A stretch of DNA of 63,929 bases, filler included, from an uncultured Methanosarcinales archaeon (GTDB lineage Archaea; Nanobdellota; Nanobdellia; Woesearchaeales; CAZKBD01), in NCBI GenBank assembly GCA_964550945.1. It is 5 parts of 5 records of this genome, joined end to end, with 100 filler letters (N's around TTAATTAATTAA, not from the genome) between each part and the next. Parts side by side here need not be neighbours in the genome. Positions count along the whole stretch, not along the records: positions 15,086 to 29,993 come from CAZKBD010000043.1; 4 more parts are not named here. One strand, given 5' to 3'. Each line of letters starts with the position of its first letter. The first letter of the stretch is position 1. The notes under the pieces are model-generated. The model did no database searches. It was not told where the DNA came from and saw nothing but the letters and a program-made list of their open reading frames with translations. Made by a program: the position numbers and the translations under genes. Below, one piece after another: positions 6,436-56,498 of this stretch.

Positions 6436-6583
6436 ATGTCAGAAACTTTTTACTAGTCTAGGACCGGTGGCTTAAAGCCAATCCATTTTGGGATTGTAAA
6501 AAGTTTCTGAGCATGCTCAAAAACCACGACATATATAAATGGATTATACTTGCCACTAATATCTGATCAGTGGTTTTTGACAT
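6436..6583. repeat. Double-hairpin repeat, TGTCA...TGAGCATGCTCA...TGACA family, copy 1
   Basis: 15-bp arm 6439-6453/6496-6510, central palindrome 6508-6519, 11-bp arm 6517-6527/6570-6580. Confidence 0.85.
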
Positions 6584-12756: not shown

Positions 12757-12891
12757 GCGCCAGTGATCTAATGGCTACGACTGGCTAGGCTTAAATTTAA
12801 CCAGTTGCCATGAATGATAGGACCTTGCCAAGGTTCTCATCCGAGAATTTTAGCTTTGCTAAGATCGGAAATTCGAATCTCGGCTGGCGCA
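12757..12891 (+). tRNA. tRNA-Gly(GCC) with D-loop intron (12777-12813) and 53/54 intron (12846-12871)
   Basis: Acceptor GCGCCAG/CTGGCGC; BHB helices ATGG/CCAT and TCCG/CGGA with 3-nt bulges restore a standard cloverleaf. Confidence 0.9.
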
Positions 12892-13803
12892 TTTACTTTC
12901 TTTCACTGATTTGTAGAAGAAATACCCCACTATACAGCAAGTCACTACTGGGGTGACCCAGGAGGGAATATGCAGCTTAAAACTTTCCAGAATCATTATT
13001 GTGCCTAGTGCAAAAATAGAATACATTGCTCCATTTTTAAGATATTTGTACTTTTTTACATTCTCAATATTCTTGATTGTTATTTGCCTTACAACAATCG
13101 CACCTATCCCGTTTCCTATCAATATAAGGGGGATAGATAAAGTAAACGCAAATGCCCCTAAAACACCGTCAACAGAGAAAGTAGCATCTATCACCTCAAG
13201 ATAAAGGATTTTGCTTATATCAGAGATGTTTGTCTTCCCTTCAAGCATCTGTTTTTCCATCTTAGCTGCATTTTCCTTAAATCCGTGTGTTATGAAGAAG
13301 GCTGTTGAGCCTATAACTGCTCCAAAAGCCATAAAAGGGTTTTGCTTAATTGATAACCAAACAAGCAAAGCCAATATCACTGATACTATTGTGAAGAACC
13401 ATACACCATGTTTTTCAATCAATTCCTCTCCTGCGATGCCGTAGTGTTTAGGCTCCAAAAAAAGCCAATGAAAGAAAAGAAAAACAAGAAAGGTGCCACC
13501 TCCAATAAATAAAACCGGTGAAGATTCCTCAACTGCCTTTAAGATGATAGGATCTGAGCTAAATGCTAACCTCAAAACACCATTTATACCAATCTGAGGG
13601 TTGCTCCCCCAAAGAATTAAAAAAGGCAGCAAGCCCCTAACCAAAAAAACTGCGATAATCAGCCCCCATATCAAAAACCATCTTCTGGCTTTTTTTGAGA
13701 CTGTTGCCAGAACCTCTCCATTTATGATCGCATTGTCTATGCTGCTAATCACTTCAAAAAGGCTTAAGCCAATAATTATCAAGATTATTTCAAATATGCC
13801 CAT
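12859..13803 (-). CDS. DUF475 (TerC-like) membrane protein
   Basis: SSIDNAIIN, YLEVIDATFSVDGVLGAFA, YLKNGAMYSI. Confidence 0.9.
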   Translation of the reverse strand: MGIFEIILIIIGLSLFEVISSIDNAIINGEVLATVSKKARRWFLIWGLIIAVFLVRGLLPFLILWGSNPQIGINGVLRLAFSSDPIILKAVEESSPVLFIGGGTFLVFLFFHWLFLEPKHYGIAGEELIEKHGVWFFTIVSVILALLVWLSIKQNPFMAFGAVIGSTAFFITHGFKENAAKMEKQMLEGKTNISDISKILYLEVIDATFSVDGVLGAFAFTLSIPLILIGNGIGAIVVRQITIKNIENVKKYKYLKNGAMYSIFALGTIMILESFKLHIPSWVTPVVTCCIVGYFFYKSVKESKCASRDSNFRS

Positions 13804-14535: not shown

Positions 14536-14732
14536 GCCCCCATGGTGTAGTCCGGTCACAGAAATGCTGGAGAATCATTTCGGCTTTTCGAGCCGAAGAC
14601 GTGGGTTCAAAACGAACCTTTTTGCTCTGCAAAAATGTTCGATCGAAATGGGGAATCTCACTTCGTTCGATTCGTTACTTTTAGAAAAAGTAACCAAAAT
14701 GAGCAGGTTTGGTGAAAGTCCCGCTGGGGGCA
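14536..14732 (+). tRNA. tRNA-Glu(UUC) with 15-nt D-loop intron (14558-14572) and 107-nt 59/60 intron (14612-14718)
   Basis: Acceptor GCCCCCA/TGGGGGC, TCGGC-TT-TTC-GA-GCCGA; BHB helices CCGG/CTGG and perfect TTCA/TGAA. Confidence 0.9.
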
Positions 14733-14757
14733 TTTTTATTACAAAGGTGGTAACTAA

Positions 14758-20583: not shown

Positions 20584-22647
20584 ATGATAATTAAATCTTT
20601 AAAGCTAAACAATATCCGGTCTTATCTAAATAATGAGATAATATTCCCAGAAGGATCAACCTTGCTAAGCGGCGATATTGGCTCTGGAAAATCTACAATC
20701 TTGCTGGCAATAGAATTTGCATTGTTTGGTGTAAAAAGAGCAGACCTTTCTGCGTCTGCATTATTAAGGCATGGAAAAAAAGAAGGTTCTGTTGAAATGA
20801 GATTCAACATCAGCAATAAAGACATTCTAATAAAAAGGAATCTAAAAAGAGGCAAGGAAGACATAAAACAAGAAACAGGTTATATAATAATTGACGGAAT
20901 CAAAAGAGAAGGCACAGCCATAGAACTTAAAACAATAATTCTAGACTTGTTAGGCTATCCAAAAGGGTTAGTCGCAAAAAGCAAAGACCTAATCTATCGT
21001 TATACTGTCTATACGCCCCAGGAGGAGATGAAGCAAATCTTAACAGAAGACAGAGAGATAAGGCTTGATATATTAAGAAGGGTCTTCAATATAGACAAGT
21101 ACAAGCGGATAAAAGAAAACTCAGCAATACTAATAAAAGAGATCAAAGAGACAAGAATTGCTTATGAAGCAAAAATCCATGATCTTGATCTAAAACAAAA
21201 GCAAAAAGATGAAAAACAGGGCGAATTCAAAAAAACAGATGAAAGATTAGGAGAGCTCTCACCAAAATTAAAAGAAGCAAAACAAAGGTTAAATGCAGAA
21301 AAGGGCAATCTGGAAAAAATTGAAAACATGATTAAAGAGCTGGAGAGATTAAAGCATGAATCAAAAATCAATGAACTAAACTTAAAAAACAAAGTAGAGG
21401 GCATAAACCGGAACAGGTTAAGGCTTGACATGCTCCAAAGGCAGACACAAGCGCTAAAGCAGGAACTGGAGCAAACAGAAAAAGCAGATGCTGAAACACT
21501 AGCAATTCCAATAAAAGAAAAGGAAAATGAAACAAGGCTGATGGAGCATACCCTCAAATCCATTAATGAAAAAATATACGAATTTCTCGCCAAAAAAAAT
21601 CATTCTCTAGGCATAAAAGAAAAAATAACTAAGATTGACAAATGCCCGACATGCCAGCAGGATGTTTCTCATGCTCACAAAGAAGCCATCCATAAAAGAG
21701 AAGACGAATCGCTTGTAAGGTTGGAAGAAGACCTCTTGCTCTATCAAAATCAGGAAAAGCAGGCAGAAGCCAAGCTTAAGGAGTTAAAAGAGATCCTTAA
21801 CCAGCTGAAAGAAAAAGAAAAAATCGCTTCTATCCAAAAAATAAAATCAGAGTCTTTAAAAGAAAAATCCAAGGAGATCCAGGATATCGAAGAGCATGAG
21901 CAGACGCTAAGAAAAGATATCAGCAAAATACGCGCAGTTAATGAAGAATTGATCAAACAGATCCAAAGCTACGAAATTACTGAAGAGGATTACAAGAAAA
22001 TAAAAAACCAGCTTGATTTTGCAATGATCGAAGAGAGAAAGCTTGAGCTGCAAAAAACAGCGCTGGAAAAAGAAAAAGAAGGCATTTTGAAAATAATAGG
22101 CATATTAGAAAAGGAAATCAGGGAAAAGATAGAGGTAAAAGAAAAACTTGCTCATCTATCACAGATGCAGAATTGGCTTGAAGAGCATTTCATAAACCTG
22201 ATGTCCACTATAGAAAAGCATATCATGTTAAAGATTCATTATGAGTTTAACAAGCTGTTCCAAAATTGGTTTGATACAATAATCGAAGACGAGATAATCT
22301 CAGTTAGAATAGACGATGAATTCAGCCCTGTGATAGAGCAAAACGGATATGAAACCAGCCTGGAAAATCTCTCTGGCGGTGAAAAGACATCATTAGCTCT
22401 AGCTTATAGGCTAGCCTTAAACAAAGTTATAAACGACATTGTAAGCGAGATAAAGACAAAAGACATCATTATGCTGGATGAGCCTACAGATGGATTTAGC
22501 ACAGAGCAGCTTGACAAAATCAGGATTGTCTTGGAGCAGTTAAATGTCAAGCAAACCATTATTGTCTCGCATGAAAACAAGATAGAAAGCTTTGTTGACA
22601 ATGTAATCAAAATAAATAAGAATGAGCATGTTAGCGATATTGCATAA
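20584..22647 (+). CDS. rad50: Rad50/SbcC-family ATPase
   Basis: Walker A GDIGSGKS, Q-loop, CPTC zinc hook, LSGGE, LDEPT, SH. Confidence 0.88.
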   Translation: MIIKSLKLNNIRSYLNNEIIFPEGSTLLSGDIGSGKSTILLAIEFALFGVKRADLSASALLRHGKKEGSVEMRFNISNKDILIKRNLKRGKEDIKQETGYIIIDGIKREGTAIELKTIILDLLGYPKGLVAKSKDLIYRYTVYTPQEEMKQILTEDREIRLDILRRVFNIDKYKRIKENSAILIKEIKETRIAYEAKIHDLDLKQKQKDEKQGEFKKTDERLGELSPKLKEAKQRLNAEKGNLEKIENMIKELERLKHESKINELNLKNKVEGINRNRLRLDMLQRQTQALKQELEQTEKADAETLAIPIKEKENETRLMEHTLKSINEKIYEFLAKKNHSLGIKEKITKIDKCPTCQQDVSHAHKEAIHKREDESLVRLEEDLLLYQNQEKQAEAKLKELKEILNQLKEKEKIASIQKIKSESLKEKSKEIQDIEEHEQTLRKDISKIRAVNEELIKQIQSYEITEEDYKKIKNQLDFAMIEERKLELQKTALEKEKEGILKIIGILEKEIREKIEVKEKLAHLSQMQNWLEEHFINLMSTIEKHIMLKIHYEFNKLFQNWFDTIIEDEIISVRIDDEFSPVIEQNGYETSLENLSGGEKTSLALAYRLALNKVINDIVSEIKTKDIIMLDEPTDGFSTEQLDKIRIVLEQLNVKQTIIVSHENKIESFVDNVIKINKNEHVSDIA

Positions 22648-22681
22648 TTTTAATATAGGGGATTAAATTCTTGCCTTTCAA

Positions 22682-22786
22682 GGGGCTGTAGTGTAGTTTG
22701 GCTATCACTGGCGCTCGGGGAGGACTTAAAGTCTTTCTTTTATCGCCTAATAGCGTCCAACCCGTGTTCAAATCACGGCAGCCCCA
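22682..22786 (+). tRNA. tRNA-Pro, probably GGG, with 31-nt intron (22721-22751)
   Basis: Acceptor GGGGCTG/CAGCCCC, stem GGCGC/GCGTC, CCGTG-TTCAAAT-CACGG; C at position 33 atypical. Confidence 0.8.
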
Positions 22787-23037
22787 TACATTCCTTACTT
22801 CTACAGGGGCGTTCATGCTATTGAGTGTAACGAAATAGCATAAACTCATCGCCGGTATCTGTAGGGTGCAGTCCCTCCAACGAATTCCCTTCATATAGTT
22901 CGTGAGACTTCCGAGCAAACCTCAGAAAACACAGTTTTATGATGGTTTAGAAACCATTTATTTCTAAAAGCGAGGAATGTCTCACTAGACTGTAGAATGC
23001 AAACGTACTCGTTTGCGTGGGAACCACGGCAGCCCCA
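22787..23037. mobile_element. Modular palindromic element ending in a duplicate of the tRNA-Pro 3' end
   Basis: CACGGCAGCCCCA at 22774-22786 and 23025-23037; internal modules shared (inverted) with the tRNA-Ile intron. Confidence 0.7.
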
Positions 23038-23119
23038 CATCCTTCACCTTTTGGCTAAATTTGCACCAAAAAGCAAAAAAAGAAACCTTTAAATAGTAGT
23101 AATCTCATTATTCCTAGTT

Positions 23120-24559
23120 GTGATTTTAATGGTAATGAAAAAGGGTGTTTTTTTATTAACTTTTGTTCTATTGCTTATGCCAATTATTTACGCAGAAGAT
23201 TTTAAGGTCTCTTTCACGCCAGTCCAAAACCAAATCAAGGCAGAGGAGGCAGCAAAATTTAATCTCACTATATCCAATAGCCTTGAAAGAATTGAACAAT
23301 TCAGGGTTTTTACAATGGATTACCCCACTTGGGATATCTATACAGACCCGATCCAAAATCCCATTATAGTTGAAGTGCAGCCAAAATCAGAAAAAACCAT
23401 AATTCTTCTTGTAGACCCTTTAAAAATATACGAAATTGGAGCATATAATGTAAACATCAAGGTTGAATCCACAACTAAAGGGCCTGCCATCAACACTCCT
23501 GTCAGGGTTTCAATTATTTCAAGCGAAGCAATGACCTATATACCCACAGTCACAGCAGACCTAGAAATTCCCGGCAGTATAGACCCAAGAGAAAATATCC
23601 TAATCAAAGTTAATCTTATAAATCAGAATATCTTGGATATTAAAGACTTGGTTATCAGGATAGAGAGCAATTTAATAAATGACGAGATAACAAATGAAAT
23701 TGGTCCAAAGGAAAGAAAAACAGTAGAACTTACAAAACAGCTGGATCCATTAACATCCCCCCAAAAAGGCATGCTGACCCTCACCCTATTAAAAGGCCAG
23801 GAAATGATAACAGGCCCTATCGCTAAAGAGTTTTCAATCGTAGAATACGCTTCTCAGTCAAAAGAAACAGTAACCAAACAGTTTCTTAAGACCCAAAAAG
23901 AGATACAATTCTCCTCCAACGATGAAAACTATAAAGGCGTTATGAAAGTTGAGACTAATCCCTTAAAAAGCCTATTCATAACAACAAAGCCCAAATCAAC
24001 TATTGTCAAAGAAAATGGAAAAACCTATTTGGCTTGGCCAGTTACTTTGGAAGATAAATTAATGGCAGTGAAAATAACCGAGAATTATAGGCCTTTGCTT
24101 TATCTGGCAATATTGATCATAATATTGATATTACTCTACCTTAAATTTAGGGGACCATTAACAATACAGAAGAGTGTAGCAGGCATTGAAAAACGAGAAG
24201 GTGGAATATCCAACGTAAACATAATTCTAGCAATAAAAAATCGCGGGAAAACAGCACTTAAGGATATTGAGTTGATGGACAGAATCCCTAATCTTGCCGA
24301 TATTGAAAAAGAAATCTCAATAGGCACATTGCAGCCAGTCAAGATATTAAAGCACGAGAAGAAAGGCTCCCTTGTCAAATGGGTCCTTGACAATTTAGAC
24401 GCCAGCGAAGAAAGAGTTATTAGATACAGAATAAAATCAAAGCTTTCAATTATTGGCGGTTTCAATCTTCCAGCTGCTGTTGCAAAGTACAGGCATAACA
24501 ATAAAGAAACTAAATCAAGGTCCAATAAGGTAACAATAACATCTCCTTCTCAATCATAA
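23120..24559 (+). CDS. Surface protein with Ig-like/DUF11-like domains and TM helix
   Basis: Signal peptide, beta-sandwich-like repeats, TM near residue 330, IKNRG..LKDIELMDRIP. Confidence 0.7.
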   Translation: MILMVMKKGVFLLTFVLLLMPIIYAEDFKVSFTPVQNQIKAEEAAKFNLTISNSLERIEQFRVFTMDYPTWDIYTDPIQNPIIVEVQPKSEKTIILLVDPLKIYEIGAYNVNIKVESTTKGPAINTPVRVSIISSEAMTYIPTVTADLEIPGSIDPRENILIKVNLINQNILDIKDLVIRIESNLINDEITNEIGPKERKTVELTKQLDPLTSPQKGMLTLTLLKGQEMITGPIAKEFSIVEYASQSKETVTKQFLKTQKEIQFSSNDENYKGVMKVETNPLKSLFITTKPKSTIVKENGKTYLAWPVTLEDKLMAVKITENYRPLLYLAILIIILILLYLKFRGPLTIQKSVAGIEKREGGISNVNIILAIKNRGKTALKDIELMDRIPNLADIEKEISIGTLQPVKILKHEKKGSLVKWVLDNLDASEERVIRYRIKSKLSIIGGFNLPAAVAKYRHNNKETKSRSNKVTITSPSQS

Positions 24560-42333: not shown

Positions 42334-42362
42334 CTAGTTTGTATTGACTGCAAAGTCCTACA

Positions 42363-42488
42363 TGTCAAGAACTGCGGACTGAAGTCCACAGCATGCAGTT
42401 CTTGAGCATGCTCAGAAATATACCCTAATCACCAAGCGGATTGGAATTTGTCCATCAGTCAAAATAAGCTAAGGGTATATTTCTGACA
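42363..42488. repeat. TGTCA...TGAGCATGCTCA...TGACA repeat, copy 2
   Basis: 11-bp arm 42365-42375/42395-42405, palindrome 42403-42414, 15-bp arm 42412-42426/42472-42486. Confidence 0.85.
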
Positions 42489-42524
42489 CATAAATATTTA
42501 TATTAGTAACATTCTTATTTTCTA

Positions 42525-56184: not shown

Positions 56185-56401
56185 TGTCAAAAACTACCTA
56201 TCACAGATGAGTGGCATGAAGCATTAGTGTCTGTTAATTATTGATGAACCTGTGGTTTTTGAGTATGAACTGAGAAATTTGCTTTGCAAATTTCTGGTTT
56301 GTTAGAAATGCCTTGCATTTCAAACACTCAGAAACTTTCGATATTACTATTGAAGATTTGATTTCGGCCATCAATTCTAAACTGGCAGGAAGTTTCTGAC
56401 A
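56185..56401. repeat. TGTCA...TGACA repeat, copy 3, centre split by nested double hairpin
   Basis: TCAAAAACTAC/GTGGTTTTTGA, TGAGTAT...ACTCA, TCAGAAACTT/AAGTTTCTGA. Confidence 0.8.
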
Positions 56402-56498
56402 TTTCCAAAATGTTTTAGAAATTGAGGATTTCTAAACCTTTATCGTTTCGCTCTGCTCAACAATAAAGTTTAAATAATAAGCGAGTTCTCCAGTAATC

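Follow-up and report, generated by a model that had tools for sequence, protein, structure and literature searches.

It is an open question how protein-spliced tRNA introns reach new positions and how they pass from one tRNA gene to another, unrelated one. In the archaeal genome studied here (G000), the question is raised by a tRNA-Pro(GGG) gene whose 3' end recurs downstream, behind an insert that resembles, in reverse, the intron of a tRNA-Ile gene. An earlier note on this DNA saw in the locus either an att-like mini-insertion or a snapshot of how 59/60 introns arise. The window that we analysed is a stretch of 63,929 nt in which several G000 contigs are joined by N spacers, with the tail repeat on contig C43 and the tRNA-Ile intron on contig C42 (C-numbers denote contigs, other G-numbers other genomes, and L-numbers loci).

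The tRNA-Pro(GGG) locus and its insert

Nucleotides 61-73 of the tRNA (22774-22786) are exactly repeated 251 nt downstream, at 23025-23037, as the earlier note had reported. When the preceding AA and the T60>C change are counted, the repeat is 15/16 identical, and the chance of such a repeat within 300 nt is about 4e-7. The weak similarity noticed past its end is there as well, in the form of a looser likeness that runs a few bases into the trailer. Contigs from two samples of one study (X1 record 1, 22200-23224, and X3 record 14, 22567-23500), one of which may be the source of the assembly, span both copies without any difference, and a contig from another study (X7) covers 22670-22877, including the first junction, again with no difference. 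These contigs refute an assembly chimera at this locus; an origin of the repeat by chimera or by chance is extremely improbable, the same layout being found in other families, even if certain tandem copies in G019, situated at contig ends, may be assembly echoes. A joint skipping the insert was absent among the contigs examined, which drop rare variants, and an empty-site search in metagenomes gave three matches, none of them a tRNA.

Table 1. Features of the tRNA-Pro(GGG) locus and of the tRNA-Ile intron, in window coordinates
Feature	Position	Strand	Remarks
True 59/60 intron of tRNA-Ile(UAU), 97 nt, on C42	14126..14222	+	5' part corresponds to a hairpin and core unit in antisense
tRNA-Pro(GGG) gene, intact T-arm	22682..22786	+	Exon 1 22682-22720, exon 2 22752-22786; C at position 33; orthologue L004
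Canonical 37/38 intron of tRNA-Pro(GGG), 31 nt, relaxed bulge-helix-bulge	22721..22751	+	Putative boundaries
T-loop nt 54-60, near-palindromic TTCAAA	22767..22773	+	Putative target of the element, from sequence and register comparison
Tail copy 1 (nt 60-73, U60)	22773..22786	+	Most likely the functional 3' end
Trailer after tail copy 1	22787..22805	+	Loose likeness to the trailer after tail copy 2
Unit 1	22806..22890	+	Hairpin 22811-22845, core (module A) 22851-22876; 79% identical over 68 nt to the C120 tRNA-Arg unit (E 4.6e-7)
Unit 2	22893..23023	+	Arms of hairpin B 22897-22916 and 22967-22992; degenerate core, terminal hairpin 22999-23016; end motif GTGGGAA 23017-23023
Double hairpin, 50 nt, nested in the loop of hairpin B	22917..22966	+	
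Tail copy 2 (nt 60-73, C60)	23024..23037	+	C would mark any spliced product

ARAGORN gives the anticodon CGG for this tRNA, most likely a mis-parse, because its syntenic orthologue has the same loop without the 37/38 intron and the genome possesses separate TGG and CGG Pro genes; we treat the gene as Pro(GGG). All five orthologues seen have a C at position 33, where a U is usual (window 22715-22716; L002-L005). The locus has as neighbours an upstream gene encoding a Rad50/SbcC-like ATPase and a gene for a protein without a Pfam match. Among 40 homologues of the protein encoded downstream, the three with an organism name are assigned to Nanoarchaeota or Ca. Woesearchaeota, and we take the host to be a DPANN archaeon of the Woesearchaeota type. 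No tyrosine recombinase is encoded in or beside the insert, the sole PF00589 match in the genome being on contig C24, in agreement with the earlier statement that no integrase is nearby. An Rfam gathering scan and default ARAGORN of the window retrieved only a tRNA-Val, and no Rfam family matched the insert. Directly after this tRNA-Val, a tRNA-like gene with apparent introns (window 12758-12892) was missed by both programs.

The 237-nt insert is made of two tandem gene-less units, each a hairpin followed by a core, which end in GTGGGAA and precede the copy of tRNA nt 60-73. In a four-way alignment, both units have this order, the second with the nested double hairpin, a degenerate core and the GTGGGAA end, and they can be aligned along their length with a unit found behind a tRNA-Arg gene on C120 and with the reverse complement of the tRNA-Ile intron. 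A circular permutation of modules A and B of that intron was dropped in favour of this arrangement in two units. The reversed modules themselves lie between the copies as the earlier note had proposed: module A at 22851-22876, with 24/26 identical positions (E 8e-4 against the genome), and the arms of module B at 22897-22919 and 22967-22992 (E 0.035 each), interrupted by a 50-nt insert that corresponds to the nested double hairpin described there. The region 22760-23040 is predicted to fold far more strongly than shuffled sequence (z -5.5). The inverted repeat said to enclose the modules does exist, with 8 bp (22799-22806/22990-22997), but at chance level, since 63 of 300 shuffles reach 8 bp, and with a pairing probability of 0 in the folded precursor; we rejected it as a boundary of the element.

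A family of gene-less units behind tRNA genes

Among 15 intact T-arms detected by pattern in G000, two have a downstream tail copy, that on C43 and that behind the tRNA-Arg gene on C120, which has the same layout; C5 carries a third, degenerate unit downstream of an intron-bearing tRNA. In the 401 genomes of the order, the Pro-type end pattern has five matches in four genomes (control 0), and the core pattern, which represents one subfamily, has 49 matches in 31 genomes (about 8%) belonging to 29 of 258 genera, with many tRNA types (control 1). One of these 49 matches is in G374, outside the loci that we read. Of the 40 loci read, 38 are directly behind a tRNA and two are cut by contig ends, the remaining G019 places having been read separately. 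GTGGGAAYC alone is not enriched, and the core pattern has no match in viral contigs. A typical unit is gene-less, 50-130 nt long, and composed of a variable hairpin, a short stem-loop core and GTGGGAA; it is followed by a copy of the host gene that starts at nt 57-60 and ends 0-17 nt past nt 73, within the trailer, the spacing between copies being 61-865 nt. The core stem is 93.9% paired and three of its eight pairs changed on both sides, indicative of covariation, with a right arm partly fixed by the pattern; RNAalifold did not recover this stem.

Second tails could be scored in 43 of 46 units. They are perfect 14-nt copies in 23 of the 43 and keep nt 66-73 in 38, and four have a foreign appearance. 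The T-stem is broken in 14 of 42 second tails and in no first tail seen, copy 1 having been chosen by the presence of at least four T-stem pairs. The variable parts of units from one genome resemble each other (median 0.78, 22 pairs) more than those of units from different genomes do (0.56, 839 pairs), with likeness of at least 80% in 8/22 same-genome pairs vs 2/839 cross-genome pairs. The Leu and Ser units of G019 have an identical variable part and differing tails, and near-identical units are shared by the Leu, Ser, and Glu genes of G019 and likewise by several tRNA genes of G318, the tails being local in most cases.

A covariance model of the core found 47 matches in 24 of 151 genomes. Among 20 new loci read from this search, 14 lie after a visible tRNA with a tail copy, another such unit is cut at a contig start, one precedes tRNA-Cys without duplication, and two have neither tRNA nor duplication. 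In the remaining two, L189 and L179, the duplicated sequence is the end of the 16S rRNA and, outside any tRNA, a 22-bp stretch that begins at a T-loop-like GGTTTGAAT, respectively. The model describes a tight subfamily and, up to an E of 5, did not match the units of the window; their membership in the family is suggested instead by the BLAST match of unit 1 to the C120 unit, the similarity between module A and the core of a G082 unit with a tail duplication (21/23 identical), the four-way alignment and the common layout. The locus is part of a widespread, undescribed family of mini-elements. Our search of the open literature retrieved no description of the element.

Other arrangements accompany these units. 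Tandem arrays of tail plus unit occur in L180 (G061:C58), L025 (G062:C60) and L023 (G019:C16); a Pro-type tail is included in the G062 Val array, and the 5' end of the G061 Leu gene recurs several times upstream of that gene. In G019, other unit types without GTGGGAA duplicate the tail and trailer (L051, L057, L182), one of them with an antisense copy of the T-arm.

Relation to 59/60 introns and alternative explanations

As read from its sequence, the tRNA-Ile intron is a reversed hairpin and core unit in the same register at the palindromic T-loop. Read in antisense, this intron and a 27-nt tRNA-Pro intron of G104 leave 2 nt between the core hairpin and the T-loop hexamer that follows it, like the sense units. 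In the Ile intron of G310 the register is off by 2 nt, and among three hairpin-bearing introns from the 401-genome pattern search it held in one of the two tested. G000 has 13 genes with true 59/60 introns by pattern, plus one more, and most of the 13 show no core. The core combined with a canonical intron end has seven matches in the 401 genomes, fewer than the reversed control, three being true introns and four unrelated. A reversed element at the start of true introns suggests how such introns arise, and the family is a plausible source of some 59/60 introns, although the numerical support is thin. The Pro(GGG) orthologues seen occur in three states: plain (G030, G018), duplicated (G000, G019) and with a true intron in G010, whose syntenic gene carries a 59/60 intron of 103 nt. 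A relative with a 59/60 Pro intron, for which the earlier note had suggested looking, is thus at hand. In ARMAN-2, tRNA-Cys and tRNA-Pro(GGG) have non-canonical 59/60 bulge-helix-bulge introns (PMC3239211). The junction position is the same here, the Ile intron of G000 shares the unit in antisense and the syntenic Pro(GGG) orthologue is intron-bearing; in contrast to the ARMAN-2 cases, the tRNA here is complete when unspliced, its 3' exon is duplicated and the helix would be TGGG instead of YGAA. As a separate observation, the 107-nt 59/60 intron of tRNA-Glu (window 14601-14733) and a 110-nt intron on C5 (G000:C5:23766-23900) are 82% alike over 90 nt and form one intron family in two tRNA types.

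The insert behind tRNA-Pro is probably not spliced. The earlier note had observed that TGGG-AA|C (23018-23024) can pair with the T-loop TTCA, and it formally can, through two Watson-Crick and two G-U pairs, with a 3-nt bulge AA|C (23022-23024) that fits the 59/60 register. It could be an optional 59/60 intron, EndA cutting a relaxed hBH between the T-loop and TGGG-AA and RtcB joining nt 59 to copy 2, with the excised circle possibly as the mobile form. The register is exactly 59/60 in the 27 scored units, genes for EndA and RtcB are present in G000 next to its 13 true 59/60 introns, and for a DPANN EndA, in vitro cleavage of an intron of the relaxed hBH type at 59/60 has been described (PMC3239211). 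However, the central helix has at least three Watson-Crick pairs (3-4) in 13/13 true introns, mostly TGAA opposite TTCA and CGAA opposite TTCG, vs 0/27 units (1-2 pairs; not counting 16 of the 43 units, whose tails are gapped or foreign), a comparison that, like that of the tails, is partly circular because the search pattern fixes TGGG and copy 1 was picked on at least four T-stem pairs. Forcing the helix costs a median of 0 kcal/mol in true introns vs 4.4 in units and 5.2 at this locus, and unit helices do not covary with nt 57, unlike those of true introns. The tRNA can form with the insert in place, its T-arm and acceptor being completed by copy 1 (T-stem probability 0.82-0.90), and in the whole precursor the 59/60 helix has a probability of 0 and lies ~6 kcal/mol above the copy-1 cloverleaf; against the unspliced reading, the acceptor strand pairs in the equilibrium fold more with copy 2 (0.8) than with copy 1 (0.2). 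Several ends found by the model, and thus not bound to the pattern, break the helix (L166, L168, L170, L176, L183/184), whereas one true intron ends in TGGA-AA and L188 in the near-canonical TGGA-AG, so that intermediate helix ends exist. Second tails decay while no broken first tail was seen, foreign tails are second ones whereas a reinserted circle predicts foreign first tails, and the core also occurs outside tRNAs. We accordingly consider an optional intron unlikely, with minor splicing conceivable given EndA, RtcB and the relaxed specificity that DPANN EndAs can have (PMC3239211 and PMC5829648). The weak helix, its lack of covariation with nt 57, the decaying second tails and the helix-breaking ends do not sustain the spliceable half-way state proposed in the earlier note. 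What survives of its snapshot of intron origin is the link to introns, through the antisense Ile unit, the G010 intron and the G019 duplication. At this locus, U60 versus C60 is a built-in marker separating unspliced from spliced product.

Two further explanations place the duplication outside splicing. The reverse transcription of a pre-tRNA from its 3' trailer, with a stop at modified A58 and a switch to the element RNA, would agree with a left end fixed near nt 58-60 and a right end that varies within the U-rich trailer; m1A58 stops reverse transcriptase, and the genome encodes two DGR-type enzymes of this kind. Such retro-copying seems quite unlikely, considering that the duplications extend to a non-tRNA site and a 16S end, that GAA(T) microhomology alone accounts for the left end and that no reverse transcriptase is linked to any unit read. 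An even less probable origin is the remnant of an integrase-driven element of the SSV1/pNOB8 type, with attL and attR at the tRNA 3' end, shrunk to a mini-island. Such integration is known to leave an intact tRNA and a directly repeated tRNA 3' end (PMC3293823), and one long member (L075) encloses an ORF, but this ORF is LAGLIDADG-like, tied to initiator tRNA and accompanied by the core in only 1/11 loci, the only integrase gene of the genome is on another contig, C24, the repeat has a variable right end (0-17 nt) and viral contigs lack the core pattern. Moreover, near-identical units are found at different tRNA types, each usually beside the tail of its own host gene; a fixed attP could not produce this, and a classical att scar is therefore unsupported. 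Of the att-like mini-insertion first suggested, the mini-insertion with a duplicated tRNA end stands and the classical att scar does not. The units share with SSV1/pNOB8 integration, and with the Caldiarchaeum model in which introns are gained through the intron-bearing attP of an integrase element at a single locus (PMC3293823), an intact tRNA, a direct terminal repeat and a mobile element as proposed intron source; they differ from SSV1/pNOB8 in the lack of a recombinase, a size of ~50-240 nt instead of kilobases, the many tRNA types and the variable right end of the repeat.

Proposed copying between loci and candidate enzymes

Our best reading, which we hold to be reasonably probable, is that the units are non-autonomous mobile elements copied from locus to locus at the DNA level, with a fate, trailer or 59/60 intron, that depends on their orientation. 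More tentatively, a gene-less element of an undescribed class might target the palindromic T-loop common to all tRNAs, its orientation deciding between a trailer and an EndA-spliced 59/60 intron. In this copying, a broken or stalled strand at the tRNA 3' end would use a donor locus as template for trailer, hairpin, and core and then rejoin its host at the GAA(T) common to every T-loop, leaving the host tail duplicated. In sense orientation, the tRNA would stay whole, use copy 1 and shed the remainder as 3' trailer, so that copy 2 would be free to drift. Since the T-loop hexamer is palindromic, the same end of the element could also join the opposite strand, in antisense, interrupting the loop after nt 59; such an insertion would survive only if a bulge-helix-bulge forms, becoming a true 59/60 intron like that of tRNA-Ile. 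As a first guess, the trigger may be a free-standing LAGLIDADG nuclease together with host repair. On this copying model, the tRNA-Pro locus would represent an unspliced sister outcome of intron gain and not an intron in transit.

What we count in favour of copying is the recurrence of the units, their likeness within genomes, their local tails and the drift of copy 2, and the duplicated non-tRNA site and 16S end suggest that targeting acts on sequence. As no empty-site or excised allele was seen, it is the distribution of the units that argues for mobility; concerted gene conversion would give a similar pattern, and the four foreign-looking second tails need late switching or later recombination. 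If the T-loop is targeted with an orientation-dependent fate, the element would be a direct source of non-canonical archaeal tRNA introns. The recurrence of the core at many tRNA types and its homology, in reverse, with the start of true 59/60 introns provide concrete predictions on orientation, register, and donor-recipient pairs.

Comparable short elements exist in other systems. Like MITEs and REP-like elements, the units are short, gene-less and hairpin-rich, with several copies per genome, nested insertions and, as in MITEs, a target duplication. Unlike MITEs, they have no significant terminal inverted repeats (none shared was seen in the 40 loci read) and their duplications are variable (14-31+ bp) and anchored at the T-loop. 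To our knowledge, IS200/IS605-type elements make no duplication; on inspection, the core does not fit their guide and cleavage pairing rules. Tandem repeats at E. coli tRNA ends such as tyrT/RttR begin with the tRNA's own 3' end. Our units likewise start with a tRNA 3' end, and in G019, G061 and G062 they are arranged in tandem, although here one conserved core, related to introns, is found across tRNA types and genera. The element departs in a defining feature from each of the intron, island, and MITE families.

The inventory of candidate enzymes in G000 includes four free-standing LAGLIDADG ORFs (two beside tRNAs), two DGR-type reverse transcriptases, two Y1 transposases and one tyrosine recombinase. 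No unit was seen adjoining the Y1 transposases, both located at contig starts. The ORF enclosed in the long unit L075 has no Pfam or PDB-sequence match and none by Foldseek; in a structure comparison (VIA), its best score was to a homing-endonuclease intein (Z 5.8, rmsd 2.9, 93 aligned), and LAGLIDADG_3 was detected in 9 of 13 relatives scanned. The 11 best loci of its single-domain LAGLIDADG-like family (L121-L131, in 11 genomes, one cut by a contig end) are all beside initiator tRNA-Met, in either orientation; a tail copy without core follows twice. Given this tie to the initiator tRNA, the scarcity of the core in its loci and the lack of a homologue in our search of G000, we rejected this ORF as a general mobiliser.

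Some other features of these genes and of the intergenic regions deserve mention. On C5 (G000:C5:22795-23704), a tRNA gene has a second copy of its first 23 nt ~880 nt upstream, and the two copies enclose a 225-codon LAGLIDADG ORF, a 5'-end counterpart of the tail duplication. The free-standing LAGLIDADG ORFs (G000:C5, C33, C40, C104; L121-L131) have in common a short upstream motif with CACTGGACA before a TATA-like box, and a long conserved hairpin is found upstream of two LAGLIDADG ORFs and downstream of the C24 integrase. Contigs C146 and C153 of G000 each carry a DGR-type reverse transcriptase, template-repeat-like stretches and a Y1 transposase. Further intergenic palindromic repeats are present in the window at 6450-6530, 42350-42500 and 56240-56470, and the self-complementary GAGCATGCTC has 58 two-strand matches in G000, that is, ~29 sites. 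Finally, the ends of G000:C37, C60, C101, C107, and C131 share a ~45-nt repeat, which might be a CRISPR leader or repeat and beyond which their sequences differ.
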